The translations under genes and the position numbers were made by a program. A DNA stretch of 64,000 nucleotides, taken from contig OZ220734.1 of the NCBI GenBank assembly GCA_965116945.1, positions 158,980 through 222,979 on the forward strand, read 5' to 3'. Source of the DNA: Dehalococcoidia bacterium. GTDB lineage: Bacteria > Chloroflexota > Dehalococcoidia > Plut-88900. The notes beneath the pieces are model-generated. The model did not search any database. It was not told where the DNA came from and saw only the letters and a program-made list of their open reading frames with translations. Positions 29,135 to 55,871 of this stretch are shown here, one piece after another; positions within the stretch are counted from its first letter, which is position 1, and the number at the start of each line of letters is the position of its first letter.

Positions 29135-29261
29135 CCCCGGGGAACAATCCCTGGCTCGCGAGGCACGGAGCAAGCGGGCGTCCGGCTGCGGTTGGGCGCC
29201 CGCATCGGCGGGAATTGCGCCCCGGCGCCGAGCGGCCCGAAACGCAAAAGAGGACGCGCAC

Positions 29262-29549: not shown

Positions 29550-29607
29550 TATCCATGTCTGTACACGTAAGCAAGCATGACTTTAGGAGCGCGACAGGAG
29601 GGCCTAC

Positions 29608-29949
29608 ATGGGCAATATCGAGACCATTAGATATCAAGGCACGGCGATTACTGTACAGTTGTGCGATGCCAACCCGGACGTATTCCGTTACAAGTTAGGT
29701 CGCAACGAGGACATGGACAATGCCGATGCGGTGCTGACTTTCGACCACAGTGCCGGAGCGGGCAATCGATGGATAGCTGTAGTGGGCGATCGCAACAAAG
29801 CGTTTCCGGGTTTGTTTGAAGCGGACGAGTATATCCTCAAATACCTCGTGACATTGATGGCACAACGCGCTGCAAAGGAGCAGCGCATCAAGGACATTTT
29901 GGATGAGGCTACGGATTACCTGGCTCGACGTGCTCGGATAAGGCCCTAA
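29608..29949 (+). CDS. Hypothetical protein (113 aa)
   Basis: An ORF with normal-looking composition. No recognisable motif. Confidence 0.4.
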   Translation: MGNIETIRYQGTAITVQLCDANPDVFRYKLGRNEDMDNADAVLTFDHSAGAGNRWIAVVGDRNKAFPGLFEADEYILKYLVTLMAQRAAKEQRIKDILDEATDYLARRARIRP

Positions 29950-30161
29950 CACGGAATGGGCGGCACAGGTCTTTAACTGGTGAAAGGAGTTGTGCCTTAG
30001 TGTCGAGTAAGACTGTACGAATGAGTAGTGTCGCACGAGCCTCAAGAAAGGGGCCCAAGCTCATGAGCAACAAGGCTCAGTTTCTATTGCTTGCGCTTCT
30101 ATTCATGAAGATGGCCGTCATCGTCGCCTCGGTCATCGTACTGTTCTTCTAGGAGGACCAC

Positions 30162-36100: not shown

Positions 36101-36123
36101 ATTTGTACTATCGCCTGCCTTCT

Positions 36124-37587: not shown

Positions 37588-37603
37588 CTTCCAACGTGTC
37601 GCC

Positions 37604-40600: not shown

Positions 40601-40750
40601 TTCGCCCGGTACAAGAGGGAGCTTGGTAACCACGTACTCTTGGCTAGGGGAGTCGTCTCCCGACATGACGGCACCACCAATGTTACCCTGTCCAGCGTGA
40701 AGACGTTGGACGTCGGGACCCGAATGCCTGCCGCCCACGACTGGCATTGA
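37604..40750 (+). CDS. dnaE2: Error-prone DNA polymerase III alpha-type subunit DnaE2
   Basis: N-terminal PHP YTELHLKSFYSFGMGASH. Pol III alpha core motifs (DIDLDF, IRPGV, HAFAVTAY). C-terminal OB fold. About 1050 aa, without the beta/tau-binding tail length of DnaE1. ATG 37604 follows the imuB stop (37585-37587). Confidence 0.9.
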   Translation: MTASYTELHLKSFYSFGMGASHTHEMLAQAREHGYGTLALTDTNLCGALEFARLAGSLDIRPITGGELTLTDGTRLVLLARTRRGYANLSRLFTLANAVDRREPRLDPVHLAHHSEGLVLLTGGREGPVSRLLLDGRRGEAGALLKEYMEWHGPDSVYVELQRNFLEGDNDLVRDSVSLAREMGVPLVASNDVHYHDPKRYRLQHSLVAARLNTTMEQALSHIRPNHHLHLKSPSQMTELFSDFPEGLSNSLRIAEKCEFNLASDLGYTLPEPAVPSGYTADSYLKRLCSEAAQRRYGAVTPEVEARLEEEFLLIGRHKLAGFLLLYREIVLLAQKIMEEKGLAHPEMPLEERPPGRGRGSSVALLVGYLIGISHVDPLRWGLTLERFIPEDMTTLPDIDLDFPRALRDELIECVHRHFGPEFAVLAGAVSTYSVKGIIQDLGKALGLPKEDLRMLSKQLHSHDARDLKGEMLELPAFREKVDAPGWRDLLQLAPQLMNAPRSLGQHVGGMILSDSPLPEMVPIRESAIQGRYIMDWNKDSTADAGFAKIDLLSLPVLDQIEEALDLVEQREGSRPDISAIDPEDNGVYEMLSEGRSKGVFLLQSPAQLKMGQRLRPRNLLDLAYQVALIRPGVGVQGSAVSKFVDRYRHGVEWDYDHPLERRALERGYGIIVWQEQVVQLISDVAGMKTSEADEIRRAFARPNSAHLIAMHRRRFLEGALANGVPRDIAERIFEKINGHYMFPESHSHAFAVTAYQAAWLKSHHPLEFFVALMNSQPMGFYPMETVKEDARRFGVPFLNPCMNRSGVNCIPEKDSVLLGLGKVRDVGEESAKLIVQERERHGPYSGAGDLVRRTGLKTQTVHSLVMAGAFDGVTPNRREALWDAGLPVRPPRNGQRAMPVSAAASIPELPDFTDKEKMAGEYTVMGIYPRGHVMEFVRPTLPSNVFCAADIDSLPEGERVLVAGWPVARQHPRGMEGTVFVTIEDETGDVQLIVWPRVFARYKRELGNHVLLARGVVSRHDGTTNVTLSSVKTLDVGTRMPAAHDWH

Positions 40751-40796
40751 GGGGACTGCCCCACTGGTGGGATAATCGTGTGGGAGGGCAAAAGAC

Positions 40797-41462
40797 GTGT
40801 GCGGAAGATACACCCTGATAGCCGACATCGGAGACCTGGCCCAGCGCTTCGAGTTCGACGGCTCAGACTTCAGCTATGATTCTGGCTACAACATTGCACC
40901 CACCGACAGCGTGCTCACGGTGAGAAATGTCGAGGGCCGGGAGGCGGCTTTCATGCGCTGGGGCCTGATACCCTTCTGGGCCAAGGACCCGAAGATCGGC
41001 GCCCGGATGATCAACGCTCGTGCCGAGACCGTCGCCGAGAAACCCGCCTTCCGAAACGCACTAAAGAAACGCCGCTGCCTGGTCCTCGCTAACGGCTACT
41101 ACGAGTGGCAGAGGACGCCGACCGGCAAGAGACCCTTCCGCATAATCCTGAAGTCCGGGGAGCCGTTTGCCATGGCTGGGCTATGGGAGACCTGGAAAGA
41201 CCCCCAGGGCAACGTCGTCCCTTCCTGCACCATCATCACCACCTCCGCCAACGACTATCTTGCCCCCATCCACAACCGGATGCCCGTTATTTTGCCCAGG
41301 GACTCGGAGGAGTTGTGGCTCGATTCGAGAATCGACAATCCGGCTTCGCTAACCTACATGTTCGCCCCAAGTCCCGACGATGCGCTGGACGCCTACCAGG
41401 TCTCCACGATGGTGAACTATGCGCGCAACAACGGACATGAACTCCTAGCTCGATTAAGATAA
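40797..41462 (+). CDS. yedK: SOS response-associated peptidase (SRAP/YedK family) abasic-site processing protein
   Basis: Begins MCGRY (catalytic Cys2), then WGLIPFWAKD ... NARAETV ... RRCLV ... GYYEW ... HNRMPVIL, which are SRAP signatures. Confidence 0.85.
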   Translation: MCGRYTLIADIGDLAQRFEFDGSDFSYDSGYNIAPTDSVLTVRNVEGREAAFMRWGLIPFWAKDPKIGARMINARAETVAEKPAFRNALKKRRCLVLANGYYEWQRTPTGKRPFRIILKSGEPFAMAGLWETWKDPQGNVVPSCTIITTSANDYLAPIHNRMPVILPRDSEELWLDSRIDNPASLTYMFAPSPDDALDAYQVSTMVNYARNNGHELLARLR

Positions 41463-41681
41463 GATTCAGTGGTGATGCAAGTGCCATAGCAGGAATTACT
41501 AATACGGCATTTTCGATGCACCAGCAGCAGTTGCTCTTTCCCTGGAGGACGGTCATGCCCGCAGAGCTGATGAAGCCAAGAGTTCACACGCGCCAGCATC
41601 AGTCGGCAACCAGATCTCAATACAGCTGGGTAATAACCCTTGAGAAAGAATGAGTCCAAAACATACAATTGCAGAAGAGAG

Positions 41682-43625
41682 ATGAATGAGAATGGTCAAA
41701 CAGAGAACGCAATGACCAGCAGTAACCATAGTAATCCTATGTGGAGATTTCCTGCGCGAAACGGTGGTATTGACTTCGTTGCGGATCCTTCCAGCGCCCA
41801 TTTCAGTGATGCACCGATTACCAAGCTAGTACGTGAGCTCATTCAGAATTCCCTGGATGCCAAGGACCCTGGATTTAGGACACCCGTAACGGTTGAATTC
41901 ACTGAAACGAACATTGACCGAGACGAAATCGGCGGCGAAGAGCTCCAGCAGCATCTGGCAGCTTGCTTCGACCGCTCCGCCAGAGAAGGCAGAGCGAGAG
42001 CCATGGCTACTTACAAGGGGGCCTTGGACATTTGTCGCCAGAAATCAATTCGTTGCCTGAAAGCCCAGGATTTCGGCACTGTGGGACTGGATGACACCCG
42101 TTGGCATGCGCTGGTGGTCCAGGAGGGTGCAGTCAGCAAAACGGGTCCTGCCCCGAGCGGGTCCTTTGGAATCGGCAAGAACGCGGCCCTTAACGTCTCA
42201 GATTTGCAAACCGTGTTTTATTCGACAAGGTACGTATCGGGGCGTTGGGGAAGAGTGGAGAAGATGCAGGGGAAGGCTACCCTCATGGGGCACGACGCCC
42301 CCGGCGACGGGGAGGAGCAGCTTCAACATATCGGGTTCTATTCTGAATCAAACGGCTACCCGATCATGGGCAGGGCCATCGCACCGTCATTCAGGCTTGG
42401 GGAAACAGGGACTGGCGTCTTTATCCTGGGCTTCAACCCCCGCTCCTCCAATTGGGTTGAGGAAATGACCAAGGCGGTAATAGATAATTTCTTTCATGCA
42501 GTGTCTGGTGGAAAGTTGGTAGTTAAGGTCAAGGCTTACAAGGGGAAGAGCCCCGTACTCATCGACCATGAGACCATCGACTCCTTGTTTCAGGCAGAGT
42601 CTGTGGAGGGAAGCAACACCGCGCACTATTACAGGGCGATCAGGGACGTAGAATTCCAATCGACGCCGCGCTTGGCTCCTTTAGGTTCGCTCATGGTTCA
42701 TGTCGTATTTGGGGAAGGCGCACCCCGGCGTACCGCCCTGGTCAACCGCAATGGCATGATGATTTCCGACAGCAAGGACCTTCGCATAAATCCCCTGTCC
42801 CCAAGGGGCAGGGGAGTATGGCCGGATTTTGCCGCCGTAGTAATGCCAGGAAGTGATCGAGGAGATCTATGGCTTAGGTCCCTAGAGAATCCCAGCCATG
42901 ATTCACTGTCCACCGAGCAGCTGCCCACGGAGGCGGAACGCGGGGATGCCAACAAGCTGTTCAAGAGGATCCGGTCTGAAATTGCGGATATCATCGAGGG
43001 CCTGGCTGGTATTGGGGAATACGTCAATGAGTCAAACATTGACGAGCTCAACGGCGTCCTGCCTGATTTGGGTCAGGGAGCTGACCGCGCGCTTCTGTCG
43101 ACGGAATTGGCGCCTCCGGCAGCCGGGGGGTCCGGAGAGTGGTTCGAAGTCGACGTGACTGGAGAAGGAATCCAAGAGGACATTAGGGGTTGGGACTCGG
43201 AGGAGTTGGAAGACCAGGGCAATGAGTCGCAGTCTGAAGAAAATGACGGCGCCGAGGAAGCAAGCACTACCAACGTTGGACCATACAAGAGCGGTGGCGG
43301 CGAAGGCCAACATTCGGCCAAACGCCGGAGGCTGATGAACATGCGCGTTATCCCAATTTCCACTACCGAGGCCGTATTGGCGTTCGACTCCCCGGAGGAA
43401 GCGAGTGATGAGTTAAGCATCTCCCTTGTTCCCGTGGGAGTAGACAGGGACGCGCGTCTCAGCGACAGGCTAACGGTTCTTGAAGCACGAGCTCTACAGG
43501 GCATAGAAGCTCCAATAGGCATCGAAGATGGACAGATTACCTTCACTCCCGCCCTCAATGGCCGCGTGAGCATAAGGGTCGTAGTGGATGGAAACATCCA
43601 GCAAACGGCCCTTAGGGTGAGCTAA
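41682..43625 (+). CDS. GHKL (Bergerat-fold) ATPase-like protein, module A
   Basis: N-box ELIQNSLDA, G1-like QDFGTVGL, G2 GSFGIGKN. Acidic low-complexity region, then a C-terminal beta-rich domain. The ORF is open from 41640 (TTG), and ATG 41682 is the preferred start. Confidence 0.7.
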   Translation: MNENGQTENAMTSSNHSNPMWRFPARNGGIDFVADPSSAHFSDAPITKLVRELIQNSLDAKDPGFRTPVTVEFTETNIDRDEIGGEELQQHLAACFDRSAREGRARAMATYKGALDICRQKSIRCLKAQDFGTVGLDDTRWHALVVQEGAVSKTGPAPSGSFGIGKNAALNVSDLQTVFYSTRYVSGRWGRVEKMQGKATLMGHDAPGDGEEQLQHIGFYSESNGYPIMGRAIAPSFRLGETGTGVFILGFNPRSSNWVEEMTKAVIDNFFHAVSGGKLVVKVKAYKGKSPVLIDHETIDSLFQAESVEGSNTAHYYRAIRDVEFQSTPRLAPLGSLMVHVVFGEGAPRRTALVNRNGMMISDSKDLRINPLSPRGRGVWPDFAAVVMPGSDRGDLWLRSLENPSHDSLSTEQLPTEAERGDANKLFKRIRSEIADIIEGLAGIGEYVNESNIDELNGVLPDLGQGADRALLSTELAPPAAGGSGEWFEVDVTGEGIQEDIRGWDSEELEDQGNESQSEENDGAEEASTTNVGPYKSGGGEGQHSAKRRRLMNMRVIPISTTEAVLAFDSPEEASDELSISLVPVGVDRDARLSDRLTVLEARALQGIEAPIGIEDGQITFTPALNGRVSIRVVVDGNIQQTALRVS

Positions 43626-43626
43626 T

Positions 43627-44484
43627 ATGCCGACCTTATGGCATCAACGCGCGCTCCCCTACCCACTCTTGGCCGGGTGGACCGGGGATTATCGGGACTG
43701 CGCATTCGGATTCTCTGAGACCAAAGCCACCCTTCGCAACGGCTCATCTATCGAGATTAAGCTTAAACTGCAGTTGAGCTCAGCATACCTGCAAGGTCTC
43801 GTGGAAAGTGGTGATGCCCAATTTGTTGTCGATGTGTCGTGTCCAAAGACGTTTCTGAAACAAACCCAACCCGTCAGCACCCTGGACAGCGTGAATCTAA
43901 ACGCTGCCGACTGTGCCGAGGAGATCTTTCTCACGCCCCAAATTGTGGCATCGGCCCCTCTCAACGACTTCATTTCGAGTGAACACGCTCCGGAGTGGTG
44001 CGAGCACAGACCAGATGGGTTCAGCATTCCGGAAGCCAGTCTCCTAGCGGTGGGAAACGTCGTCCGGATCGCCATAGAGGAAACGGGCATCAATTCCGTC
44101 ATAGACTTAGTCGCCAATTCTCATGTGGACGACGGCATATTCCAGGTGGAACTGGAGGGGGAGCGAATTAAGATTCACGTTTCTCCGAGCGACAAGGAGC
44201 GCATCGAATCCCTCAGGCAGCGTAGAGGTAGCGACAACGCCGGGTTCGCCGGACTGTATCCGTCCTTGTACTTGTCGGCAGTTTCGGAGGCATTGAGGCA
44301 ACTGCAGCACCATGAGAATTCCAGGTGGGCGTTCGCCATAAGACTAGCGCTTGAGAAATGCGGATTCGGAAATGTACCTGCGGACTCAATCGCCGAAAAT
44401 TCCTTGTTTTATGCACAGCACATCCTGGAGCAACCAATTAGTGGATTCCTGGACGCTGCAACGACCCGTGAAGAAGCGGAATGA
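43627..44484 (+). CDS. Module A partner 1 (285 aa), paralogue of 51022..51831
   Basis: Starts 1 nt after the upstream stop. Shares LQGLVESGDAQFVVDVSCPKTFL with LQSLVDQDKARWALELRCPTTLL of the module B protein. Confidence 0.6.
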   Translation: MPTLWHQRALPYPLLAGWTGDYRDCAFGFSETKATLRNGSSIEIKLKLQLSSAYLQGLVESGDAQFVVDVSCPKTFLKQTQPVSTLDSVNLNAADCAEEIFLTPQIVASAPLNDFISSEHAPEWCEHRPDGFSIPEASLLAVGNVVRIAIEETGINSVIDLVANSHVDDGIFQVELEGERIKIHVSPSDKERIESLRQRRGSDNAGFAGLYPSLYLSAVSEALRQLQHHENSRWAFAIRLALEKCGFGNVPADSIAENSLFYAQHILEQPISGFLDAATTREEAE

Positions 44485-46112
44485 AAGATAAGCATCCAGT
44501 CTATAGGTTGACGCAGGAGGCGTACGACCAATTGTGGCTTGCGGCTTCGGAATGCCCGGAAGCCTATCTCGATCCTAGAAGGGACTTCGAGGAAGTGCTC
44601 AGAGGTCGCGGAGTGACAGACTACCTTGAGGAAACTAGCCTCTTCTCTAAGGGTCCCATTGAACTAGAACCCGTGGAATCCGGACCCTCAAACAGGGCGG
44701 ACGTGCAGTCGTTGCGATTCCATCGCTCCCTTGAGGGAATGACGCCCCGCCTGGCATTGGACGAGCGCCTTTGGACGTGGATGACCCACTTCCCCTTGCA
44801 TGCCTACAGCATCAAACGATGGTCTAGATCGAAGAACACCAACTTAGTCAATTACGTCAGGGCTCACTGGTTTCACAATGGCTCGGGGGACGCCCTTTGG
44901 CGTCACAATACGGCGTCTCGCACTTGGTGGCTAGGGCACATAGCGACAAAGGCCGCAGAAGGTTCGGCTGGAGCCTTCAAGGCGGGGGACGCCATCAAGG
45001 CTTTTTCCGATACCGCGGTCTTCTATCATCTGCCCATGTATTACAACTTCACCAGAGAGCCCATGGTATTGGGAGAAGTTGTACGGGCCCTACTCAACGA
45101 GGCCGAAGGCATCAAGGCAGAAGAGGGATTGTACGCTCTGCTCAAGGTACTCAACCTCGCAGGTGGGATACAGGTCCTGTCCATGTTGCCGCGCCTAACC
45201 CTTCGAGAGCGCATAGTTGACGAGGTTGAGCGGATCATGTCGAACCCGGACCTAGTCAGAGACCGCACGAAAATTCGCAACAGGAAGGTCTTCAGATCGC
45301 TCAGCTTGGGAGCAGGGGTTCAATCCACGGTTTTGGCCCTCATGGCCGAACGGGGCGAACACGGGCTTCAGAAGCCGGACGTGGCAATATTCGCGGACAC
45401 CGGCTGGGAGCCACCTTCCGTCTACGAGCATCTGGAATGGTTAAAGCAGCAAGTATCCTTCGAGATCGTCACGGTCGGATCGGGAGACATCAAAGATAAC
45501 ATCCTGGCCGGCACCAGCCCGGACGGTAACAACTACCTGGGTATCCCAGCATGGCTTGTCAACCCTGACGGAAGTCCGGCTGTAGCAGCCCGGCAATGCA
45601 CCACGAAGTACAAGATAAAGCCCATCAATCAGTACTTGCGCCACCGTCTCGGATTTACTCCGGGACGCCGTGCTCCGAAGGATGTCGAAGTCGAAATATG
45701 GATGGGAATAAGCGTTGACGAAATCTTTCGAATGAAGGACAGCCGGGAGGAGTGGGCGCGAAACCGCTACCCGCTAATCGAGCTGGGTTTGAGCCGTGCC
45801 CAACTCCAGGATTGGTTTGAGGAAAACTATCCCGGCCGCTACCTGCCAAGGAGCGCATGCATCGGTTGTCCCTACAAAAGCGACGGTGAATGGAAGTGGT
45901 TGAAGAGTAACGATCCCAAGGCATTCGAAGAGGCCATATTCGTTGACAAGGCGCTGCGCGACATACCCGTCGTTCGTAACGCTATTACAAGGAACGGAGC
46001 AACTGCCTATCTGCACAGTTCTCGAAGACCTTTGGGCGAAGTAGACCTAGAGAGCGCAAGGGACTACGACCAAGTCATGGCCGACGAATGCGATGGAGTT
46101 TGCAGGGTTTAA
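44481..46112 (+). CDS. Module A partner 2 fused to a PAPS-reductase-family (PP-loop ATP pyrophosphatase) domain
   Basis: ATGA overlap with the upstream gene. The N-terminal ~260 aa resembles 51828..52832. The C-terminal part carries LSLGAGVQSTVLAL (variant PP-loop), RQCTTKYKIKPI, MGISVDEIFRMKDS and SACIGCPY, as in DndC/phage-type PAPS reductase-like proteins. Confidence 0.7.
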   Translation: MKDKHPVYRLTQEAYDQLWLAASECPEAYLDPRRDFEEVLRGRGVTDYLEETSLFSKGPIELEPVESGPSNRADVQSLRFHRSLEGMTPRLALDERLWTWMTHFPLHAYSIKRWSRSKNTNLVNYVRAHWFHNGSGDALWRHNTASRTWWLGHIATKAAEGSAGAFKAGDAIKAFSDTAVFYHLPMYYNFTREPMVLGEVVRALLNEAEGIKAEEGLYALLKVLNLAGGIQVLSMLPRLTLRERIVDEVERIMSNPDLVRDRTKIRNRKVFRSLSLGAGVQSTVLALMAERGEHGLQKPDVAIFADTGWEPPSVYEHLEWLKQQVSFEIVTVGSGDIKDNILAGTSPDGNNYLGIPAWLVNPDGSPAVAARQCTTKYKIKPINQYLRHRLGFTPGRRAPKDVEVEIWMGISVDEIFRMKDSREEWARNRYPLIELGLSRAQLQDWFEENYPGRYLPRSACIGCPYKSDGEWKWLKSNDPKAFEEAIFVDKALRDIPVVRNAITRNGATAYLHSSRRPLGEVDLESARDYDQVMADECDGVCRV

Positions 46113-46262
46113 GACTATCCGCTATTCCTCCTGGTTGCCACCTCTCCCTGTGACGGACCGAACTGCATTATAGAAGGTTGCAGTACATCAACGGAGCCAT
46201 TTTCATCGAGCTGCAAGCAGATGTGCTATGTATTGGGACCGAATGACTTATGGAGAAACCGA

Positions 46263-48578
46263 ATGGTGAATCAAGTTAGGGATCTGTTCGAAGCGGAGGC
46301 GGGTAGCTTTGGGGACACGATGATGGCTCATAACGGGGTTGTTGGCTACAAAATCCCTGAGTATCAGCGGCAATACAATTGGAAACGGGAACACCTAAGG
46401 AGATTGATTGTTGATTGCCTGAATGGCTTTTATAGGCTATCCACATCGTCTGATCCAGAATACGCTTTTCTAGGTAGCATAATTTTGGCGAAAGAAAGTC
46501 AAAGCGAACCAACATTCGATGGCTCTTCATTGATTGTCGTAGATGGTCAGCAACGACTCACTTCCCTCATTCTTATGGCATGTGCTCTATTTCAGCGAAT
46601 AAGGAAGCATAGGGCCGACATTGTGAAGCTGACTTTAGATACTCAGCATTGGCTGAACGCGGAGATCGACACACAGCTGAGCCAGCTTCATCGATGTGCA
46701 ATTGGCCAGTTGGTGCGACTTGGAAGCACGTATCCATATCCACGTTTAATTCGCTTCAAGGATCATCGAGGTGATTCCGCGGGACAATCGGAGTACCGGT
46801 CCCCCATTGGCCGATTCTTGAGGCAATTTGCGGATCATGCCATCAAACCAAATCCGACGTTTCAACCGAAGTTGGTTGATGAGGACGCGCCAGGTAGCCA
46901 TGTCGTGTCGAGCTTTGAGTACATCTGCAAGGCATTGGACAGATACCTCTATAGCCCCTGTTCACATTCTCCAGATGCTGACCCTGAAGAAGATGTCAAT
47001 GTTGTAGACAGAACTGAGTTTCAGAAGGCAAGCTATCTAAAGCTCTTCCGCCGTCGGGATTATCATCCAAAGCCATCAACAAGAGACCGCTGCGCTTCGG
47101 AACTTGCAAAATCGTCCGAAGCAGCGGGACTCGCACGCTTAGTCCTTTTTTCTTCTTATGTGACTCAGCGGGTAGTGCTGACTCGCGTTGAAGCCCAGAA
47201 TGAAACAGACGCATTTGACATCTTTGACGCTCTAAACACTACCGGTGAACCGCTCACTGCCCTAGAGACATGCAAGCCGCTAGTAATACAGTTCGAGAAC
47301 AAACATGACGGCTATTTGAGGTCTCAATTGCAGGAAGATTGGGAATCAATGGAGTCCAAGCTTGCCGAAACTTACAGGGAGCCTGGTAATCAGCAAATCG
47401 AGACAAAACAAATGCTTACGTCATTTGCCCTATATTTTGATGGACATAAGCTGCCGTTGGATCTCACTAATCAGCGCCGCTATCTACGGGACCGCTTCAG
47501 CAAGGCGCAGGCACAGAGTGCGGAAATAGCGCGAGGGTTTGTGGGTGCTCTGAGGGATTTGGTCGAGTTCCGAATACAATACTGGGACAAAACGGCGATC
47601 GATGGTCTGGGTGTGGGTGCGGTGGGGGCTAAAGAGGCCGATTTATTGAAACTTTGCCTCAGATTTATCGCAGACATGAACACTAGCCTTGCGATTCCAA
47701 TATTGGCGCGGTACTGGTCCGAATATGGTGAAGGGCATTCATTCCTTGCAGCGACGAAAGCCGTAACCGCGTTTCTAGCACTTCGAAGATCCGTCACGGG
47801 AGGCACGGCGAGAATCGACTCCGATTTCCGTCGATTGATGAGTAACCCAACAACCCTTGGCGGCGATCCTCTTTGCTTAGGTTCCAGCTTATCCCACCTG
47901 CCAATGTCGATCGAGATCCTCAGAGGGGAATTGAGAGAGTTTCTAAACGAACCAAGAATAGGTGTGCAAGACAAGGCGACATGGATTGCCAAGGCTAGGG
48001 AGGTAGAGTTCGGCGTACAAGCACCTAGGCCACTGTGCCGTTTTCTATTAATGGCCGCCAATCATAATGCGCGACCAGATGAGTCCCATCCTGGCCTTCT
48101 TACTGACAGTGATGTAATAGAAGGAGACGATCTTGACTTTTTGAATCACCGAAATTGGGTGGGCCCAAAGTACGCAACAGTCGAGCATATTGCCCCGGAC
48201 TCGGATCCAGGCCATGGATGGGAACGCAATATCTACGCGCGGACAGCAACTCGGCAACGGCTTGGCAACTTGCTTTTGTTGCCAGAGAAAGAGAATCAGA
48301 GCATTGGCAACTCGAAATGGCACCGAAAGAAGAAGTTCTATGCCGCGCTGGCAGCCAAGTCGAAGTCAGAGCGCGACGCTCTCATTGGAGACGCTAAGAG
48401 CCAAGGCTATAGATTCGGCAAAAAGACAGAGACTTTGCTTCTCAGTCAGGAACGCTTAGGTATGTTAGATCACCTGGTCGAAGTGAATAACTGGACTGCA
48501 AAACTAATTGAGCTGCGAACCGAGAGCCTCTTAGATCTAGCGTGGGATGAAATATCTCCCTGGCTGTTCGATGACTAG
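46263..48578 (+). CDS. DUF262 (DGQQR, ParB-like) + DUF1524 (HNH-like) protein, GmrSD/SspE-like
   Basis: YKIPEYQRQYNWKREHLRRLI, VVDGQQRLTSL. C-terminal VEHIAPDSD ... GNLLLLPEKENQSIGNSKW. ATG 46263 is preceded by GGAGA. Confidence 0.85.
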   Translation: MVNQVRDLFEAEAGSFGDTMMAHNGVVGYKIPEYQRQYNWKREHLRRLIVDCLNGFYRLSTSSDPEYAFLGSIILAKESQSEPTFDGSSLIVVDGQQRLTSLILMACALFQRIRKHRADIVKLTLDTQHWLNAEIDTQLSQLHRCAIGQLVRLGSTYPYPRLIRFKDHRGDSAGQSEYRSPIGRFLRQFADHAIKPNPTFQPKLVDEDAPGSHVVSSFEYICKALDRYLYSPCSHSPDADPEEDVNVVDRTEFQKASYLKLFRRRDYHPKPSTRDRCASELAKSSEAAGLARLVLFSSYVTQRVVLTRVEAQNETDAFDIFDALNTTGEPLTALETCKPLVIQFENKHDGYLRSQLQEDWESMESKLAETYREPGNQQIETKQMLTSFALYFDGHKLPLDLTNQRRYLRDRFSKAQAQSAEIARGFVGALRDLVEFRIQYWDKTAIDGLGVGAVGAKEADLLKLCLRFIADMNTSLAIPILARYWSEYGEGHSFLAATKAVTAFLALRRSVTGGTARIDSDFRRLMSNPTTLGGDPLCLGSSLSHLPMSIEILRGELREFLNEPRIGVQDKATWIAKAREVEFGVQAPRPLCRFLLMAANHNARPDESHPGLLTDSDVIEGDDLDFLNHRNWVGPKYATVEHIAPDSDPGHGWERNIYARTATRQRLGNLLLLPEKENQSIGNSKWHRKKKFYAALAAKSKSERDALIGDAKSQGYRFGKKTETLLLSQERLGMLDHLVEVNNWTAKLIELRTESLLDLAWDEISPWLFDD

Positions 48579-49107
48579 TTTAACTCTTCGGTTCATCTGC
48601 ATTACTCACCATGATCCCACGTGTGCAGCGTTTGACAGTTCTCATTACCAGCACACCAACAAGGTCACTAGCCTCCTGTCTTCTAGGCAAGTATTGGAAC
48701 CCTGTTGGCCGACAAGAATGTCTGGGCATACGGGTTACTTTAAACCTAAAATAATGGCTGGCCTTCGCACGCATAATTCCGCGCATACCATTAAGATTGC
48801 GGACCTAATCCGCCGATCGATAAGAGTCACATCCCGAATCGATTTAGGAGGTGGATCTCCACAAGTTCTCCAGAGCCCCATTTAGTCAATCTACGTAAGT
48901 CGGTAGACAAACGCATGAGTTCAATGGACAGATTCACCCTCACCCAGTCTTCCATTTATTCCAAGTCATTAACCATGCGTGCGTTCTTTTTCACTATAAC
49001 CCCGGATTGAGCCAATCTTGGATTCATGGAGCGGGAGAACTGCTTACGACTTCCAACTCTCATTTCGGTCATAAAGCCTGATAATTATTTGCGATTGAAT
49101 CATCACT

Positions 49108-51018
49108 GTGCAATCATTGACGACCGTGAGCGCAGAATTAGTATTTCCCGAGTCTTGGCAACTGGATGGGTTCACCACCAACGTCACTAGTCGCCAGGCT
49201 GGCGAGCCTGATCCAGTCGTACGCGAGCTGCTCCAGAATTGTCTTGATGCCGCGGTACGTGAAGCAGATCGGGAATATGCAGAAATCCACTTTACAATTG
49301 CCAGGCGCTCCCTAGAAACGCTACCAGGTCGCGCAGCGTATGTTGAAGCCTTTCAATCAGCGAAGGCAGAGGTGAAATCTCTTCCAACCTACGACGTGAG
49401 GTCAGCTATTCGGCGAATCGAGCAAGTGCTCAAAGGGCAGGAAATGAGCGTTCTCTTCTGCAGAGATAACGGCGTAGGATTGAACCCCACTCGAATGAGT
49501 GCACTGCTGTCCGAGGGCCAAAGTGATAAAGCAAGGCAGGGTGCCGGTTCCTTCGGCTTAGGACACCTCACTGCATACGCTGCATCGGATCTGCGTTATG
49601 TCCTTTATTCCGGAAAGCGAGGGCTAGAAGAAATCGCTAGCGGGCATACGATCTTAGCCTCTCACAAACGAGGGCAAACTCGGTATTCCGCACACGGCTT
49701 TTGGCGTACTCCTACCGACATTTTTAGCCTGGAAGATGGCAACTTCCCCGATATTGTTCCAGGATTAATGCGGGATCAGATTGATCGAATCGACACGTCC
49801 GGTACGGTAGTTGCGATTGCCGGTTTCAACTTTTTCCACGAAGACACTCCCAGTGAGGCCTTGCAAGCAATCTGCCGGGTTGCTGCACTGAACTTCCTGG
49901 GCGCTATCTGGGAAGGGAAAATGAAGGTTCATGTCCACGACGAAGATTCGGGCCGCACTGCAACGGTCGACAAAGGTGCACTCCAAGCACTTCTCTCCTC
50001 TGTCCAGAATCAACAGAGAGCTTCCCATGCAGGGTGGCTTGCCGGGGAGCAAGGCTACCGAGCCTTGCAAACTCTCAACAACGGATATGTCCTTGAGGCA
50101 GAAATCGATCGGTCAATAAAGGTCTACTTTCGTAGCCTTAGTGCTAAACCAAATGAAAGATGCAGAGTTCAGGTGTTCCGAGATGGAATGTGGATTACCA
50201 ATAGAGCTCCGGAGCTGGGCCCAGGAGCCTTTACAGGAGTCCAACCATTCGATGCGGTTGTCCTTCTCAATGATGCTGACCCTGAGGACCACACAGAGTT
50301 TTATGATCTGGTACGAAATTCCGAAGGTCCTGAACACCGAGATCTTACGAAACTGCGGGAGCTTCCTAAAGAGAATCGTATGGAGCTCCGTAATATGTTT
50401 AGGAAGCTTGCCGAGCGCCTACGGGTGGAGGCCGGAGACCTTGACGTCGATGCAGGATTCACGCCTCCGGGCTTCGCCTTGTTTGGCGGTGACATGGAGC
50501 GGGTAGCGGAGCGTGTACGTCGTCCGATACGCCAACCAGACGACGGAAGTCAGGAGAGTGGTAAGCCAGGAGGAGCGGATGTGGAGAAGGGCCCAAGGCC
50601 TGAGCAACCGGGGACGAGATCTCCTCACGAGACCCCGCGGCGTGGCCCATCTAGAGGCCAGGCTCTGAGGGCACGCGCCTCACTTGTTCCCCAAAGTGGT
50701 CCTGACAATCTAGTCCGGCATCTCTCTGCTCAACTTCAAGTCAGAGAGGACCTTGGACCCAATGATCAACTCGTCTTGAGGGTTAGAATTCAGTCCGGAT
50801 CAGATGCTACCTGTGATCAGCCGTTGCCTGATACGTGGTTGGGGTTGTCCCATGTTAAGGTAGGCGACAAATCAATCGAAGCTGATGGGGCGTCGGAAGT
50901 CTATATTCCAAGCGATTGTAGGAGAATGACGATTAGTCTCCAAGAGCCTCTAAAGGACGCGGTTGGTGTTGCCCTAGATGTGATTAGGCGTAGAGCCAAG
51001 CAAACCACAGGGACATAG
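49108..51018 (+). CDS. GHKL (Bergerat-fold) ATPase-like protein, module B
   Basis: N-box ELLQNCLDA, G1 RDNGVGL, G2 GSFGLGH. Same overall layout as 41682..43625. GTG start. Confidence 0.7.
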   Translation: MQSLTTVSAELVFPESWQLDGFTTNVTSRQAGEPDPVVRELLQNCLDAAVREADREYAEIHFTIARRSLETLPGRAAYVEAFQSAKAEVKSLPTYDVRSAIRRIEQVLKGQEMSVLFCRDNGVGLNPTRMSALLSEGQSDKARQGAGSFGLGHLTAYAASDLRYVLYSGKRGLEEIASGHTILASHKRGQTRYSAHGFWRTPTDIFSLEDGNFPDIVPGLMRDQIDRIDTSGTVVAIAGFNFFHEDTPSEALQAICRVAALNFLGAIWEGKMKVHVHDEDSGRTATVDKGALQALLSSVQNQQRASHAGWLAGEQGYRALQTLNNGYVLEAEIDRSIKVYFRSLSAKPNERCRVQVFRDGMWITNRAPELGPGAFTGVQPFDAVVLLNDADPEDHTEFYDLVRNSEGPEHRDLTKLRELPKENRMELRNMFRKLAERLRVEAGDLDVDAGFTPPGFALFGGDMERVAERVRRPIRQPDDGSQESGKPGGADVEKGPRPEQPGTRSPHETPRRGPSRGQALRARASLVPQSGPDNLVRHLSAQLQVREDLGPNDQLVLRVRIQSGSDATCDQPLPDTWLGLSHVKVGDKSIEADGASEVYIPSDCRRMTISLQEPLKDAVGVALDVIRRRAKQTTGT

Positions 51019-51021
51019 AAG

Positions 51022-51831
51022 TTGCCCGAACTTTATCCAATGCTACTTGAAGACAGCTCATCGCTCGATTGGGAGGCGGCTTCATACTCAACAGAGTTGA
51101 TCGTTGGAGACGGTTACGCAACTGTCACGCACATGCTGAAAGATGCACCGCAACTCCAGTCACTTGTTGACCAGGACAAGGCGAGATGGGCGCTTGAATT
51201 GCGCTGTCCGACTACATTGCTGTCACGTTGGGAACTTAGTGAGACCACCGAATGCATGGCGAAGTGGGATCAGACGGAAGTCCAGGGTGAACTCTACTTT
51301 ACGCCGGGCATGATAACAATCAACCCAATTAGCCTAACTAGCGAAGGATTGAGCGATCTATGGACTTTTCCGATTAAGATCCCACGTGGTTGTTGGCTGG
51401 TCCGCGGAGACGTAACCCGCGCCAAGTCATTGGCTGCATCACTCTTGACGTTCCACTCCACATCGCGTCTCAGTGAGGGCGAAATGGAAGTGAGGCCCGA
51501 TATCAGTAGTGGAGACCTACACTTCAAGGTGTATGTGTCGGAGAAACTGTTTCCCCATTGCCCGATTCGGCGCGATCTGCAGATAGCGGCCCTAGTCGCT
51601 GCGTTTGGAAGGATTCCGCATCTGGACAACGAAGGTGACTCGGATGGAGATGACGAAGCTTCCGAATATCGCATCCTGAGCAGTATCAAGGAACGCCTGC
51701 GGGAGTTAAACGTACCAGTTTGGGGAGAAGGGCAGGATGAAAATTTCGATCCCGCACGCGCAGCGACAGCCATTGAACAGTTCTCTATAGATCAGTTGTC
51801 GACAGAACCAGGGGGCGACGACCCAGCATGA
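51022..51831 (+). CDS. Module B partner 1 (269 aa)
   Basis: Starts 3 nt after the upstream stop. Paralogue of 43627..44484. Confidence 0.6.
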   Translation: MPELYPMLLEDSSSLDWEAASYSTELIVGDGYATVTHMLKDAPQLQSLVDQDKARWALELRCPTTLLSRWELSETTECMAKWDQTEVQGELYFTPGMITINPISLTSEGLSDLWTFPIKIPRGCWLVRGDVTRAKSLAASLLTFHSTSRLSEGEMEVRPDISSGDLHFKVYVSEKLFPHCPIRRDLQIAALVAAFGRIPHLDNEGDSDGDDEASEYRILSSIKERLRELNVPVWGEGQDENFDPARAATAIEQFSIDQLSTEPGGDDPA

Positions 51832-52832
51832 ATCAGCTGAAGCCGGAAATCGAACAGAACTTCAGCGATTGGCAACGCAGTCTGGCAACTAGGGGCAGGG
51901 CAATGCCAGATTCTGTCGCCGAATGTCAGAAGAAACTACACAGTGTAGTTTCGGAGGGTCCGCTTAGGTTGGCTGCTTATTTGCGTGTCCAGTTAGGAAT
52001 TGACACCAAAGCATCCATTGAGGCTCCTTCTTTACCGTTACCCATAGGCGCGACTGAATATCGTGACCCTTCGTTCAGATTGGAGAGGACCTTGACCGAC
52101 TTTTGGGACGGCTTGATATGTCGCCGGGAGGCCTCGCGTCCTGTCTATTGGACCCTTGCACATATTCGCTGGCTCGAAGAAGGCCTGCTGGGAGACCAGT
52201 TAGAGGAAACCCTACTACGCGGCGGGGGGCGTGATTCTACGGATGATCAGCGTTCACGTAACCTGTTGAGAAGAATTGGAGGTTTGCCTCACGTGCGTGG
52301 CAAAGTCTCCGTATTGAGCGACTCTCCAATCTCTCGAGCATGGTGGCGGGGAACCGTAGCATCAGAAGTCGCAGAGGCGGCGGGAGATGACCTTGCTCTT
52401 AGTACTGCTGAGATCCATCGGGTACTCCATTCTCACAACGACGCCTGGGCTAGGCTGGTAGGTGACTCTGTCCATCGCATTACAGTGATGAATCAACCCC
52501 GCCTCCGCGCCGCCCTCATCAAACTCTATGAAGGTGCTTCGCGTGAGGGAAAGCCAATGCAACCCTCGGAAATGCAGAGCGTGGCCCGCCTCTTATCTCG
52601 ACACGGCGCCGCGCTTGCACTAAACCATATCGATTGGAATGCGCTTATCGAAATTGCTGGAGAGGCCTTAGAACGCGCCCGGGCGGAGGCAACGCCAGAA
52701 GCACAAAGCAAGGCTGCAGTCCGTGGAGAGAATTTACGCGCTGCTAGCCAAGAGGCTACAACCACGCAACCAAATGGGGCAGAAAGGCGCAAGTCGCGAT
52801 GGGCCTCCCTTTTGCCTTTCTCTAGAAACTAA
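51828..52832 (+). CDS. Module B partner 2 (334 aa), without a PP-loop fusion
   Basis: ATGA overlap. RPVYWTLAH and SRAWWRGTVASEVAE match ERLWTWMTH and SRTWWLGHIATKAAE of 44481..46112. Confidence 0.6.
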   Translation: MNQLKPEIEQNFSDWQRSLATRGRAMPDSVAECQKKLHSVVSEGPLRLAAYLRVQLGIDTKASIEAPSLPLPIGATEYRDPSFRLERTLTDFWDGLICRREASRPVYWTLAHIRWLEEGLLGDQLEETLLRGGGRDSTDDQRSRNLLRRIGGLPHVRGKVSVLSDSPISRAWWRGTVASEVAEAAGDDLALSTAEIHRVLHSHNDAWARLVGDSVHRITVMNQPRLRAALIKLYEGASREGKPMQPSEMQSVARLLSRHGAALALNHIDWNALIEIAGEALERARAEATPEAQSKAAVRGENLRAASQEATTTQPNGAERRKSRWASLLPFSRN

Positions 52833-52856
52833 GCTCTACATTCGCATACAACTGAG

Positions 52857-53762
52857 ATGGCGAAAAGTCTGACTGATACTCTGCTAAAGAGGGTCAAATC
52901 AATTCGCGTTGCTTCGAGGCACGGGCGACGGTCTCCTCACAAGCCACTATTATTGTTATTGTCACTTGGGCGCTATCTAAATGGGGATGAGAGACTTCAG
53001 ACTTATGGCGACATTGAGGGAGTCCTAAACGGGCTGATCCGGCGATTTGGTTTACCCAATAGCAAAGAGAATCCCCAGTATCCGTTTTGGCATCTGCGTA
53101 ACGACGGGCTGTGGGAAATTGACAGACCCGCACTAGTGAGGACAACAACGTCAGGAGATGCTTATGTATCTGACCTGAGAGAACACGGCATTCGCGGCGG
53201 ACTAGCTCATAATGTACTGCGCGTCCTGGAGACTAATCCAATGCTTGCCTGGAATATGGTTCACTTACTCCTTAACGACTTCTTTCCACCGTCGTTACAT
53301 GAGGATGTGCTGATGGATACGGGCTTGGTCGGCAAAATAGGCCTAGGTGATTCGAATGGCAAAACAAAGACAGGCGGGGGACGGGATCGGGGGTTTCGAA
53401 AAATGGTGCTCCAAGCCTATCGGAATAGATGCGCTCTCTGCGGGTTAGATATACGAGTGTACGATCGCCCGATTGGGATTGAGGCTGCCCACATCAAGTG
53501 GCACACTGCGGGAGGACCGGCTGAAGTCGCGAATGGTATGTCTTTGTGCGTTCTGCATCATAAGTTCTTCGATGCGGGATTGTTCACTGTTACCTCCGCC
53601 CTCACCGTGCTAGTCGCAGGATTAGCTGAGGGGGACAGTGTTGTGGAATCGCTAAACAAGTACGACAGGGTAGTTCTTCCGATATACCCAAGACTCCTTG
53701 CCCAGCGACCAGCATCAGAGTATTTGGATTGGCATGCAAGGGCGGTGTTCCAGTCTACATAG
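52857..53762 (+). CDS. SBD-like N-terminal domain + HNH nuclease (ScoMcrA/SprMcrA-type putative phosphorothioate-DNA-dependent endonuclease)
   Basis: SPHKPLLLLLSLG and NPQYPFWHLRNDGLWEI match, as far as I recall it, the sulfur-binding-domain pattern. HNH: RCALCGL ... EAAHIKWH ... NGMSLCVLHHKFFD. Confidence 0.65.
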   Translation: MAKSLTDTLLKRVKSIRVASRHGRRSPHKPLLLLLSLGRYLNGDERLQTYGDIEGVLNGLIRRFGLPNSKENPQYPFWHLRNDGLWEIDRPALVRTTTSGDAYVSDLREHGIRGGLAHNVLRVLETNPMLAWNMVHLLLNDFFPPSLHEDVLMDTGLVGKIGLGDSNGKTKTGGGRDRGFRKMVLQAYRNRCALCGLDIRVYDRPIGIEAAHIKWHTAGGPAEVANGMSLCVLHHKFFDAGLFTVTSALTVLVAGLAEGDSVVESLNKYDRVVLPIYPRLLAQRPASEYLDWHARAVFQST

Positions 53763-54350: not shown

Positions 54351-55871
54351 TCAGGAACCAAAAAGTGAGGCTGCATTTTCCTTCCATAGGGCGACGTCAC
54401 CAGGTCTCTCGGAATAGGTACTCGTTTCCCTTCGGTATCCTGAATCGCGCTGTCCCCGATAAGACAGCCAGTTAAAGCTTCCCGATGCACAAAACAGGTC
54501 ATCACAGATGATGAACTTTTCGTGAGTTTCCGTAAGTTTTACTATCAATCTATGCCGCTGGGACTTAGGAATGAGTTTCCTCAATTCTCCCAGTGCTTTT
54601 TCTCCCTTTGCCTTGTTGCGGAATCCATCGGGGCCTCGTCTTCTATTGACACCGAATCCCCAGGCAATCCTCACAGTCACGTCCCTCCCTATAGCCGCCG
54701 CTAATAGTCTGCAGATCTCGTCGTCGAATGCGTAAGGATCAATCCAAGCAGACACCAAGGTAAGCTCAGAGGATGCGCTGTTTATGGCTCGAAGCAGTAA
54801 GTGTCTATGTTCTTCGGTCTTGATGAGGCGAGTTTCGCCTCTGGTCATTTTCATTAATTTGTCTTCACGCTCAGCCAGCTTATTCTCCAGCATTAACCTT
54901 GCGGCTTCCAACTCATCAATTTTCCTAGCAAGATCGGCGCGCTCCTCCTCACTTTGGGTAATTCCCTGGGTTGCTTTGGCCTCCGCAACAGCCAGGTCCT
55001 TGTCTACGACATCGCTGTGAATCTCGTCTATATCGGTAATGAGAGAATTTTCTTCCCATGATGCGGATACCGAACTGACTCGATGCAATGACGAGCCAGC
55101 GTTCTTGAGTTCTTCTGGTACAAGATCGGCTCCGCTTTCTGCGAGTCTCTGTATTGCGGAGGACTCTTCCTGGAGATATTGATGAGCACGAAAAGCAGCA
55201 AACGTAGACTGACTGGACCCGGGTACCGACAGTTTGACAACTACAACATCGTCGCGGTACTTGAGCCACATATCCTTTATGTCGGCTAATTCCAAGATTT
55301 CTGCCGGCTCGCGCCGGTGCAAATGGACGTTATCGTAGTCTCTAACCTCGTCGAGTTTGAGATTGCTCAGTCTGGGTCTGCGCGGCTTGGCGGGAACAAC
55401 AAAGAGGCCTTCCCTTCGAGCAATGTTCCCGTCCAACAGCCGGTTAGTATCTATGTCTATGATCCTCTTGGTTAGATAGTCGTATGGAACTCTCGGGTGT
55501 CGATTCCTCGGGCGCAGGGACCTCCCTCCCGCTCTCAAGACCTCCCGACCTTTATCAGTGATTTCGATGCCGAGATCAAATCGCTGAGCCACCAACCCGT
55601 CATTAAGAAGCTCAGCAGCCGCCTCGGCCACGTATCGATCCGACAAGCCCAACAACCTGCCGAGTTCGGCAGGTTGGGCAACACCAAGGTACGACAGTTG
55701 CAGGATGAATCGGGCAGGGGTGGAAAGTTCATGCTCGGCCATCTCCACTACCCTAAGACGAATATCATAGACTGGAAGGCATACCTGAAATGCAACGTCT
55801 ACGTTGTGGTCTGGGAACCTGCGATGAGCACGTGCAGCTACGGCAGCGTACTCCTTATCTGACGTGGTCAT
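54351..55871 (-). CDS. mkoB: wHTH + phospholipase-D-family nuclease (Mokosh MkoB-like)
   Basis: HKD motif HEKFIICDDLFCASGSFNWLS. The ATG at 55871 forms an ATGA overlap with the stop of the upstream helicase gene. Confidence 0.75.
   Translation of the reverse strand: MTTSDKEYAAVAARAHRRFPDHNVDVAFQVCLPVYDIRLRVVEMAEHELSTPARFILQLSYLGVAQPAELGRLLGLSDRYVAEAAAELLNDGLVAQRFDLGIEITDKGREVLRAGGRSLRPRNRHPRVPYDYLTKRIIDIDTNRLLDGNIARREGLFVVPAKPRRPRLSNLKLDEVRDYDNVHLHRREPAEILELADIKDMWLKYRDDVVVVKLSVPGSSQSTFAAFRAHQYLQEESSAIQRLAESGADLVPEELKNAGSSLHRVSSVSASWEENSLITDIDEIHSDVVDKDLAVAEAKATQGITQSEEERADLARKIDELEAARLMLENKLAEREDKLMKMTRGETRLIKTEEHRHLLLRAINSASSELTLVSAWIDPYAFDDEICRLLAAAIGRDVTVRIAWGFGVNRRRGPDGFRNKAKGEKALGELRKLIPKSQRHRLIVKLTETHEKFIICDDLFCASGSFNWLSYRGQRDSGYRRETSTYSERPGDVALWKENAASLFGS

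Follow-up and report, generated by a model that had tools for sequence, protein, structure and literature searches.

The two gene strings described here lie on the forward strand of a 64,000-nucleotide stretch of a Dehalococcoidia genome (contig OZ220734.1, positions 158,980 to 222,979; hereafter the window) and comprise eight open reading frames (ORFs), A1 to A4 in the upstream string, module A, and B1 to B4 in the downstream one, module B. Both begin with the same triad: a GHKL ATPase, a partner of about 280 residues here called P2, and a protein of the DUF6339 family. In module A the last of these continues into a PAPS-reductase domain and is followed by SspE; in module B it stands alone and is followed by an endonuclease that joins a sulfur-binding domain (SBD) to an HNH domain. 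At odds slightly better than even (about 0.55), we read module A as a phosphorothioate (PT) writer of a new type, built on the GHKL-P2-DUF6339 core and served by SspE as its reader, and module B as a writer-less paralogue that drives or controls a PT-binding HNH nuclease. From this we infer a PT-based, restriction-modification-like immune island, organized around a core that had not been linked to PT before.

The eight proteins were searched against Pfam, PADLOC, NCBIfam and the PDB, and AlphaFold2 (AF2) models of A2 and A3 were compared by Foldseek. The only Pfam domains recognized in them are DUF6339 (A3), GmrSD_N and GmrSD_C (A4) and HNH_2 (B4). The putative writer is the C-terminal domain of A3 (whole ORF 44481-46112; domain 45288-46112). 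Its sole match in the defence library is SspD (PADLOC, A3 residues 274-490, 9.4e-15), and Foldseek places it in the PP-loop ATP-pyrophosphatase fold, together with CysH, APS reductase, TtuA, LarE and GMP synthetase; it matches neither Pfam PAPS_reduct at E 0.01 nor any NCBIfam family at E ≤ 0.01. Conserved in it are a CysH-like loop (SLGAGVQS), Cys373, a Cys460-x-x-Cys463 pair and Cys537/541, and the same cysteine pattern is kept in relatives where the PAPS reductase is a stand-alone protein. The domain is an SspD-like PP-loop enzyme and the presumed PT writer; a preliminary description of this DNA, made from the letters alone, had likewise recognized a PAPS-reductase/PP-loop domain fused to the third protein.

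The two enzymes that close the strings both point to PT. A4 (46221-48578 as the longest ORF, 46263-48578 and 771 residues in the public gene call) is a full-length SspE: it matches the PADLOC model over positions 1-765 of 766 (6.3e-229) and the SspE structures 6JIV/7DRS over its residues 20-782 (2.8e-89), and shows GmrSD_N (DUF262) and GmrSD_C (DUF1524) in Pfam, so that the DUF262-DUF1524 enzyme noticed earlier in module A acquires a name and the predicted activity of a PT-sensing NTPase-nickase. B4 (52857-53762) matches NCBIfam NF045808, 'phosphorothioated DNA-binding restriction endonuclease' (1.7e-76, score 257 against a cut-off of 180), and, over residues 192-245, Pfam HNH_2 (4.2e-9); it also carries a precomputed assignment to PF26340, DNA-SBD_ScoMcrA. 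Its N-terminal domain aligns with the sulfur-binding domains of SprMcrA and ScoMcrA, in the case of SprMcrA (7CCJ, 1.2e-10) with the Tyr-Pro pair in register, pqYPfwhl in B4 against pdYPvlal; this pair belongs to the sulfur cavity of the domain (PMC6224610). B4 is by these matches an SBD-HNH enzyme of the ScoMcrA/SprMcrA type, predicted to be a PT-binding endonuclease, in agreement with the SBD-like HNH nuclease first seen at this position.

The strongest argument comes from relatives of the triad. With one genome scanned per species, 284 relatives were confirmed; neighbourhoods with 10-kb flanks were taken from the best 80 of these, and the triad members in them were found by iterative searches. 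The 80 loci were picked by similarity to A1 and are phylogenetically related to one another, and the locus counts given here are uncorrected for this relatedness. They come mostly from metagenome-assembled genomes (MAGs) of Dehalococcoidia, Caldilineaceae, Nitrosopumilaceae/Cenarchaeum, Poriferihabitaceae and others, with a few from cultured bacteria (Massilia, Oceanobacillus, Marinilactibacillus). The GHKL ATPase is found in 80/80 loci, P2 in 76/80 and DUF6339 in 75/80, always in the order GHKL-P2-DUF6339. The modifier beside the triad varies: among 85 related loci, 34 carry a C5 cytosine methyltransferase, in most cases complete and directly upstream of the GHKL gene, and 46 a PAPS-reductase domain, either fused to DUF6339 (about 40 loci) or encoded by a separate gene up- or downstream.

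The accessory genes track the modifier. PT partners occur in 34 of the 46 PAPS-reductase loci as against 5 of the 34 methyltransferase loci (Fisher p about 1e-7, uncorrected for relatedness), where the count takes in DndB, SspE/DndI-like DUF262-DUF1524 proteins, GmrSD_N proteins, SBD-HNH, PbeC/DndD-like ATPases and PbeA-like PLD-helicases, the last being a class that may take in generic helicases. Vsr, conversely, is present in 13/34 methyltransferase loci and in 0/46 PAPS-reductase loci. In many PAPS-reductase loci a DndB or SspE-type gene follows immediately on the same strand. This co-variation is the main reason to think that the PAPS-reductase version of the system writes PT and the methyltransferase version 5-methylcytosine (m5C). 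Gene neighbourhoods thus bear out the expectation of a triad that is co-conserved, keeps its order, sits among defence genes and is linked to varied enzymes; the accompanying idea of a core with exchangeable effectors holds insofar as varied enzymes are attached to the core, but what is exchanged is mainly the DNA-modifying enzyme, and the nucleases follow the kind of modification.

A third version of the triad, that of module B, has no writer. In the genome set such B-type triads occur in four instances (the window and loci L001, L004 and L020), only ever beside a triad with a fused PAPS-reductase domain; to these a metagenome scan added five loci only, and the distant B-like triads from metagenomes have a separate PAPS reductase of their own just upstream, with a canonical SGGxxS loop. 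The B-type triad of L004 is followed by an Mrr-type modification-dependent nuclease, and the nearest relative of the window, L001 (75% identity), has a second triad as well as the same upstream genes, ImuB, DnaE2 and SRAP. The recurrence of a writer triad with a writer-less B-type triad in L001, L004 and L020 supports the reading of the triad as the core of a writer.

Some related loci contain further genes that recur beside the triad. A conserved ORF of about 169 residues, for which there is no family match, lies between the PAPS-reductase fusion and DndB in L006, L012, L013, L014 and L033 (at about 14.4-15.0 kb). Directly downstream of the PAPS-reductase triads of L009, L017, L021 and L022 (about 14.2-18.3 kb) is a set of three genes, encoding an unannotated protein of about 415 residues, an MzaB-like HATPase_c_3 protein of about 625-680 residues and a PLD nuclease of about 280 residues; in L021 it is followed by a double-HATPase protein of about 800 residues, with counterparts further downstream in L009 (819 residues) and L022 (834 residues). 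This set may be another PT-linked restriction module. In L065 (7421-9483) a C5 methyltransferase and a complete NgoFVII-type endonuclease directly precede the triad, which is in this case stacked on an already complete type II restriction-modification pair.

Of the core proteins, A1 (41640-43625, likely 41712-43625, about 637 residues) and B1 (49108-51018, 636 residues) are GHKL (Bergerat-fold) ATPases by their motif set. Both carry the N-box (ExxxNxxD), G1 (DxGxG) and G2 (GxxGxG), and they share 27% identity over 436 residues (BLASTP E 3e-14), which confirms the homology and the Bergerat motifs originally read from the translations. The corresponding residues of A1 (E66, N70, D73; D144..G149; G174xxG177xG179) show 100% conservation across 76 relatives of the family, in which R413...E416-x-P-x-H420 is invariant as well; with invariant catalytic residues, the A1 family is predicted to be ATPase-competent. 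PADLOC assigns A1 (3.2e-75) and B1 (1.6e-25) to PDC-M33A. Neither matches a Pfam HATPase (HATPase_c/HATPase_c_3); A1 has no Pfam match of any kind, neither protein has a PDB relative by sequence, and B1 shows a match under the cut-off to the sacsin-type (sacsin/HSP90) ATP-binding domain of NCBIfam (1.9e-5). Membership in the MutL/Mza or MORC families was considered and rejected, since the proteins match neither the Mza models of PADLOC nor the HATPase models of Pfam, do not significantly match MutL in the PDB, and share the superfamily by motifs only. B1 belongs to a separate B-type clade, its nearest relatives being the second triads of L001, L004 and L020, and the B copies are about equally distant from A and from the methyltransferase-linked relatives.

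The P2 partners, A2 (43627-44484, 285 residues) and B2 (51022-51831, 269 residues; the public call starts at 51040), match PADLOC PDC-M33B at 3.1e-25 and 0.0076, respectively. Their homology, also proposed in the preliminary description, is evident pairwise (E 5e-6) and from profile-profile comparison (hhalign, 96% probability, E 2.3e-9 over 223 columns). The AF2 model of A2, with a predicted local distance difference test score (pLDDT) of 81.8, consists of an N-terminal β-sandwich followed by C-terminal helices. It has no recognizable catalytic fold, its Foldseek matches being weak and FnIII/Ig-like only; the possibility that A2 is a nuclease was discarded, as no nuclease fold turned up. In a library of 1.84 billion proteins, the P2 family forms 2322 clusters at 50% identity.

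The N-terminal domain of A3 (44481-45275) matches Pfam DUF6339 (PF19866, 3.9e-25) and PADLOC PDC-M33C (5.3e-23) and is all-helical, with a pLDDT above 90 in a model that averages 87.8 over the whole of A3. Motifs conserved throughout the DUF6339 family are represented in it by W98..H103, R113-W114 and S-R147-x-W149-W150. The family has no PDB relative by sequence; the PDB matches obtained with the fold of whole A3 are all PP-loop enzymes, none of which explains the DUF6339 domain, and Foldseek yielded no nuclease fold for it in a list dominated by the PP-loop domain. A HEPN RNase, considered on account of R147-x5-H153 in A3, was rejected: H153 is not conserved in the family and is Thr in B3.

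B3 (51828-52832, 334 residues) is a divergent, stand-alone DUF6339-like protein with no enzyme domain, and its relationship to the N-terminal domain of A3 is the weak link among the three pairs. The pairwise E-value is 0.012, hhalign with shallow alignments gives a probability of 2.8%, the Pfam DUF6339 match (E 0.0067) is under the cut-off, and there is no match to PDC-M33C. A profile built from six B3-type proteins, however, retrieved from 6452 ORFs only DUF6339 proteins standing third in a triad, and the W..H and SRxWW motifs are common to both proteins (SRAWW in B3). Paralogy, and with it the homology of the third proteins claimed at the outset, is accepted because the sub-threshold Pfam match, the specific profile matches, the motifs and the synteny concur. 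Taken together, the proposal of two paralogous three-gene cores set in a defence island is supported.

Natural fusions in the same protein library join GHKL to P2 (P0414, 749 residues) and P2 to DUF6339 (P0338, 536 residues); together with the fusion of DUF6339 to the PAPS-reductase domain they link the four parts pairwise, and thus argue for one physical complex of the triad and the PAPS-reductase domain.

The domain identities, the paralogy, the co-conservation, the swap between methyltransferase and PAPS reductase, the PT-specific neighbours and the fusions are observations; we infer PT writing itself, the targeting of the writer by the triad, the clamp, and whether PT restrains or triggers module B. 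On the proposed mechanism, A1, A2 and A3 would assemble into one complex, with A2 as a β-sandwich/helical adaptor and the C-terminus of A3 as a PP-loop [Fe-S]-type sulfurtransferase of the SspD/DndC class. By analogy to MutL, MORC and GyrB, dimerization of the GHKL subunit, driven by ATP, would allow DNA to be clamped and scanned; the tethered PAPS-reductase domain would next adenylate a phosphate of the DNA backbone and swap oxygen for sulfur. The sulfur would be supplied by a housekeeping cysteine desulfurase, since none is encoded nearby, and none is found among 69 downstream neighbours of related loci either. The triad would in this way fill the role of SspB and SspC in Ssp, of DndD and DndE in Dnd, and of BrxC in BREX type 4. 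SspE would read PT on host DNA and nick invader DNA; its activity as a PT-sensing nickase has been established experimentally elsewhere (PMC9646914, PMC11662687).

In module B, the writer-less triad would deliver or gate B4, and would most simply be a further ATP-dependent arm for reading the PT state. This arm could be one of restriction, in which the mark of module A spares self DNA in the manner of DndFGH or DndI, or it could be an ATP-driven type IV arm directed against DNA whose PT lies in a foreign sequence context. The Mrr-type nuclease behind the B-type triad of L004 tilts the balance towards the modification-dependent reading. A single PT writer is able to work with more than one restriction partner, as is the case for DndFGH and DndI (PMC11662687).

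Several observations weigh against module A being such a writer. Neither the module nor the 20 other window ORFs scanned contain a cysteine desulfurase, SspB, SspC, DndD or DndE, which leaves the sulfur supply and the nicking step without explanation. C5 methyltransferases of the size found in the related loci normally need no scanning partner, which fits better with a triad that restricts than with one that targets a writer. The triad can also stand without a dedicated writer, as seen from bare instances on Lactococcus plasmids and one embedded in a type I locus in Ligilactobacillus, and, with no nuclease fold in A2 or DUF6339, the model is silent on the fate of non-self DNA. An SBD-HNH enzyme beside a PT writer would be paradoxical if it simply cut PT-DNA. 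Finally, the locus counts are uncorrected for phylogeny and rest on 80 loci chosen by their similarity to A1.

A wider view, which we regard as tentative and favour less than the PT-writer reading, is that GHKL-P2-DUF6339 represents a third independent ATP-driven DNA-scanning engine of modification-based immunity, next to DndD/DndE and SspB/SspC/BrxC, a chassis into which a C5 methylase, a PT synthase or, in the writer-less paralogues, a modification-reading nuclease (SBD-HNH, Mrr) can be plugged. On this equally tentative footing, the window would hold both halves of such a system: PT writing by a machinery of a new class, and a restriction machine, likewise new, that depends on ATP and reads PT.

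The alternative that survives best, although we consider it unlikely on balance, turns the assignment around: it would be the triad that restricts or acts as immune effector, PDC-M33 being a stand-alone defence system, an ATP-dependent complex by which unmodified DNA is attacked, silenced or kept from replicating, and the modifier would write on its own to protect self DNA. Module A would then be a complete restriction-modification unit with SspE as an extra arm, and module B a second restriction complex relying on the mark of module A. The lack of any writer in module B speaks for this, as do the complete, type II-like C5 methyltransferases that lie immediately before the triad in the majority of the 34 loci with one, where no other nuclease recurs. 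The same holds for bare triads among defence genes on plasmids. On Lactococcus lactis pS127 (L087) a bare triad adjoins AbiGI/GII and an AlwI-family endonuclease, and on Ligilactobacillus salivarius pMP1046A (L088) the triad lies between HsdS/HsdM and a large methyltransferase with a DEAD-box helicase, within a type I restriction-modification locus; both are conjugative or mobilizable plasmids of Lactobacillales, and RefSeq labels their triad proteins hypothetical or DUF6339. Such embedding in known defence loci fits the way in which PDC-M33 entered PADLOC, where the triad is listed as a defence candidate embedded in known systems. There is a precedent for a writer without partners in TdpC of the Tdp system, a protein of the PAPS-reductase type that reportedly needs no partner ATPases to write PT (An et al., 2025, as cited in PMC12914056). 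Across the same genomes, moreover, A1 (42-75% identity) and A2 (37-74%) are markedly less conserved than A3 (57-87%), as would suit components engaged in an arms race or in specificity. Against this stands that none of the triad proteins has a fold recognizable as that of a nuclease or another effector, and that 34/46 PAPS-reductase loci have a dedicated PT-dependent nuclease or DndB directly downstream, which is the pattern of a writer module and not of a complete restriction-modification pair. The covalent fusion of a writer to a DNA-destroying complex would also be unusual, though type IIG and type I enzymes are built in this way.

That the PAPS-reductase domain makes some other modification, or acts in RNA or tRNA thiolation or on a small molecule, with its PT neighbours there by chance, is improbable. 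Such chemistry would be compatible with the missing Pfam and NCBIfam matches, which deprive the domain of a DndC-type model, with its degenerate PP-loop (SLGAGVQS), and with Foldseek matches of modest score to generic PP-loop enzymes that include tRNA thiolases. SspD, however, is its only match in the defence library, its cysteine pattern suits the Fe-S PP-loop sulfurtransferases, and PT partners, sulfur-binding nucleases among them, are enriched beside the PAPS-reductase and not the methyltransferase version, often as the co-oriented gene that follows directly. Still less probable is that the triads are epigenetic or DNA-repair machinery of the MutL/MORC kind, tied to a mutasome and not primarily immune: ImuB-like, DnaE2-like and SRAP genes adjoin the triad in L001 as well, GHKL ATPases include MutL, and Vsr is a repair nuclease, but the mutasome neighbourhood is limited to the window and L001, recurrent neighbours elsewhere are restriction-modification, PT-restriction, Abi and Mokosh genes, and neither PADLOC MutL/Mza nor PDB MutL gives a significant match.

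The eight ORFs, their coordinates and strand, the motif strings quoted from them, and the two co-oriented strings with the same gene order, now recognized as distant paralogues, are all as initially described, as are the junctions: gaps of 1 nt and 3 nt before the partners and two ATGA overlaps. The public gene call for the same contig (ENA ERZ25072196, locus L086) contains the same eight genes, with only slightly later starts for A4 and B2. The longest ORF of A1 begins with TTG at 41640; its homologues begin at M25, which makes 41712 the probable start. A promoter-like site (10/12) at 41640-41669 is compatible with this, although the scan for promoters and terminators gave counts no higher than in shuffled sequence. 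An ORF of 112 residues between the modules (48547-48885) was dismissed as spurious, being without a family match in Pfam, PADLOC or NCBIfam and absent from the public annotation.

On both sides the surroundings are those anticipated in the preliminary description. The upstream flank (36103-41462) encodes an ImuB-like Y-family polymerase, a DnaE2-like Pol III alpha subunit and a YedK-like SRAP protein, directly before module A, an arrangement found in the same order in L001 and at no other locus. Downstream, on the reverse strand and convergent with module B, lies a type I Mokosh pair (54351-59422) of MkoA, a fusion of Ser/Thr kinase and SF1 helicase (1184 residues, PADLOC 1.4e-216), and MkoB, a PLD nuclease (518 residues, 1.3e-46). 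Elsewhere in the window, a second defence cluster at about 50% GC (9109-16572) contains a TIR-domain protein of 764 residues, a CARF-like protein of 319, a type II DNA methyltransferase of 425 and, on the opposite strand, a DUF262/GmrSD-like protein of 792 (PDC-M55C/HEC-05-like). Positions 18000-30000 have 66-71% GC, compared to 50-60% elsewhere, and hold a giant ORF of 2598 codons (21338-29134) and very long antisense ORFs.

If the PT-writer reading is true, it would extend PT epigenetics to lineages that dnd and ssp surveys miss (Dehalococcoidia, Caldilineaceae, Nitrosopumilaceae, and MAGs from sponges and marine sources); as the triad is common in sponge-associated Chloroflexota and Nitrosopumilaceae, these would have unrecognized PT epigenomes. 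A core wired to a cytosine methylase in some genomes and to a PT synthase in others is a natural experiment on whether such a core contributes targeting, processivity or restriction, a question that stands equally for DndDE, SspBC and BrxC. The tandem of writer and writer-less modules, in turn, offers a handle on the coexistence of SBD-HNH enzymes with a PT writer.

With respect to known systems, the triad was at first thought to match none that is named. It does: A1, A2 and the N-terminal domain of A3 match PDC-M33A, M33B and M33C consecutively on one strand (3.2e-75, 3.1e-25 and 5.3e-23), as do B1 and, weakly, B2, and the claim of complete novelty is weakened accordingly. PDC-M33 is the code name of a predicted, three-gene candidate obtained by 'guilt-by-embedding', and is said to have been put forward as a phage defence candidate in a 2024 preprint by Payne et al. 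The PDCs tested in PMC12881386 do not include it. The proteins of the window are divergent members (3e-75, against 1e-134 for a methyltransferase-linked one), and the three models do not cover the fusion to a PAPS reductase, the PT partners or the layout of writer and writer-less modules in tandem. In the literature searched there is no mention of DUF6339 or PDC-M33 and no link between GHKL ATPases and phosphorothioation, and recent PT surveys list dnd, ssp, brx and tdp families only. With SspE and SspD-like parts known and the triad equal to PDC-M33, the region is best described as a PT-based defence of the restriction-modification kind, and its novelty is not categorical. What that literature does not describe is a GHKL core that writes PT and an arrangement in two modules; PDC-M33 gains a concrete working hypothesis of its function.

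Viral carriage was not apparent, as 2.9 million viral contigs yielded no relatives with the patterns used.

The likeness to SspABCD-SspE, whose PT mark is CpsCA, is closer than the preliminary description allowed when it excluded Ssp: A4 is SspE, the C-terminus of A3 is SspD-like, B4 is predicted to bind PT, and the logic of an ATPase, a DNA-handling partner and a PAPS reductase is the same. The exclusion stands for SspA, SspB and SspC, which were not found. SspB (DUF4007) and SspC (DUF6079, Cdc6-Orc AAA+), which match none of the eight module proteins, 10 window ORFs (PADLOC) or 10 flanking ORFs (Pfam), are replaced by GHKL, P2 and DUF6339, and the PAPS reductase is fused to the last of these; no aminotransferase class V/desulfurase is present in the module or the flanking ORFs scanned, and SspA could act in trans.

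Dnd systems likewise pair an ATPase core with a PAPS-reductase writer or a cytosine methylase, their DndD/DndE 'scanning core' recruiting DndC or cytosine methylases (Rakesh, Aravind and Krishnan, 2024, PMC10853773), and their writer and restriction halves use paralogous ATPases (DndD, PbeC). DndB, PbeA/C and DUF262-HNH genes are found beside related loci, DndB and PbeC/DndD-like genes in these only. The core here is of the GHKL and not the ABC/SMC-like class, DndE is absent, and the PAPS-reductase domain is not DndC by NCBIfam; among the module proteins neither PADLOC nor, at E ≤ 0.01, NCBIfam yields a match to DndC, DndD or DndE.

In BREX type 4 a PAPS reductase, BrxP, takes the place of the PglX methylase of sister systems and is fused to an SspB-like DUF4007 domain (PMC12914056, PMC12839542), much as the PAPS-reductase domain of A3 is fused to a non-catalytic partner domain; the ATPase is of another class, and BrxC, PglZ and BrxL are not matched by PADLOC among the module proteins and scanned neighbours. 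B4 shares with ScoMcrA and SprMcrA the sulfur-binding domain, including the Y-P cavity motif, and the HNH domain; it differs in lacking the SRA domain of ScoMcrA and in its setting, at the end of an operon-like string whose first three genes are a GHKL triad, with a presumed PT writer as neighbour. With the MutL/MORC-type GHKL proteins of restriction-modification contexts (Mza), the modules have in common the Bergerat motifs and the association with methyltransferases and defence islands, but A1 and B1 show no match to PADLOC MzaB, Pfam HATPase_c/HATPase_c_3 or a MutL structure and have other partners.

Lactococcal AbiR, in which three genes need a C5 methylase, was also considered and rejected on its domain content, a sigma70-like AbiRi, a ParB-like AbiRii and an endonuclease-SNF2 AbiRiii (PMC13064643), compared to GHKL, β-sandwich and DUF6339 here. 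Large proteins that recall AbiRi occur in related loci: L002 (14207-21213), L003 (8252-10738) and L073 (4854-7973) encode proteins of 826-1039 residues whose only match is sigma-70 region-4-like, apart from a weak MzaA match in that of L002, which precedes PbeA-like and PbeC-like genes. The PT writer architectures known so far are those of Dnd, Ssp, BREX type 4 and Tdp; a GHKL-based writer, if the proposal is true, would add another.

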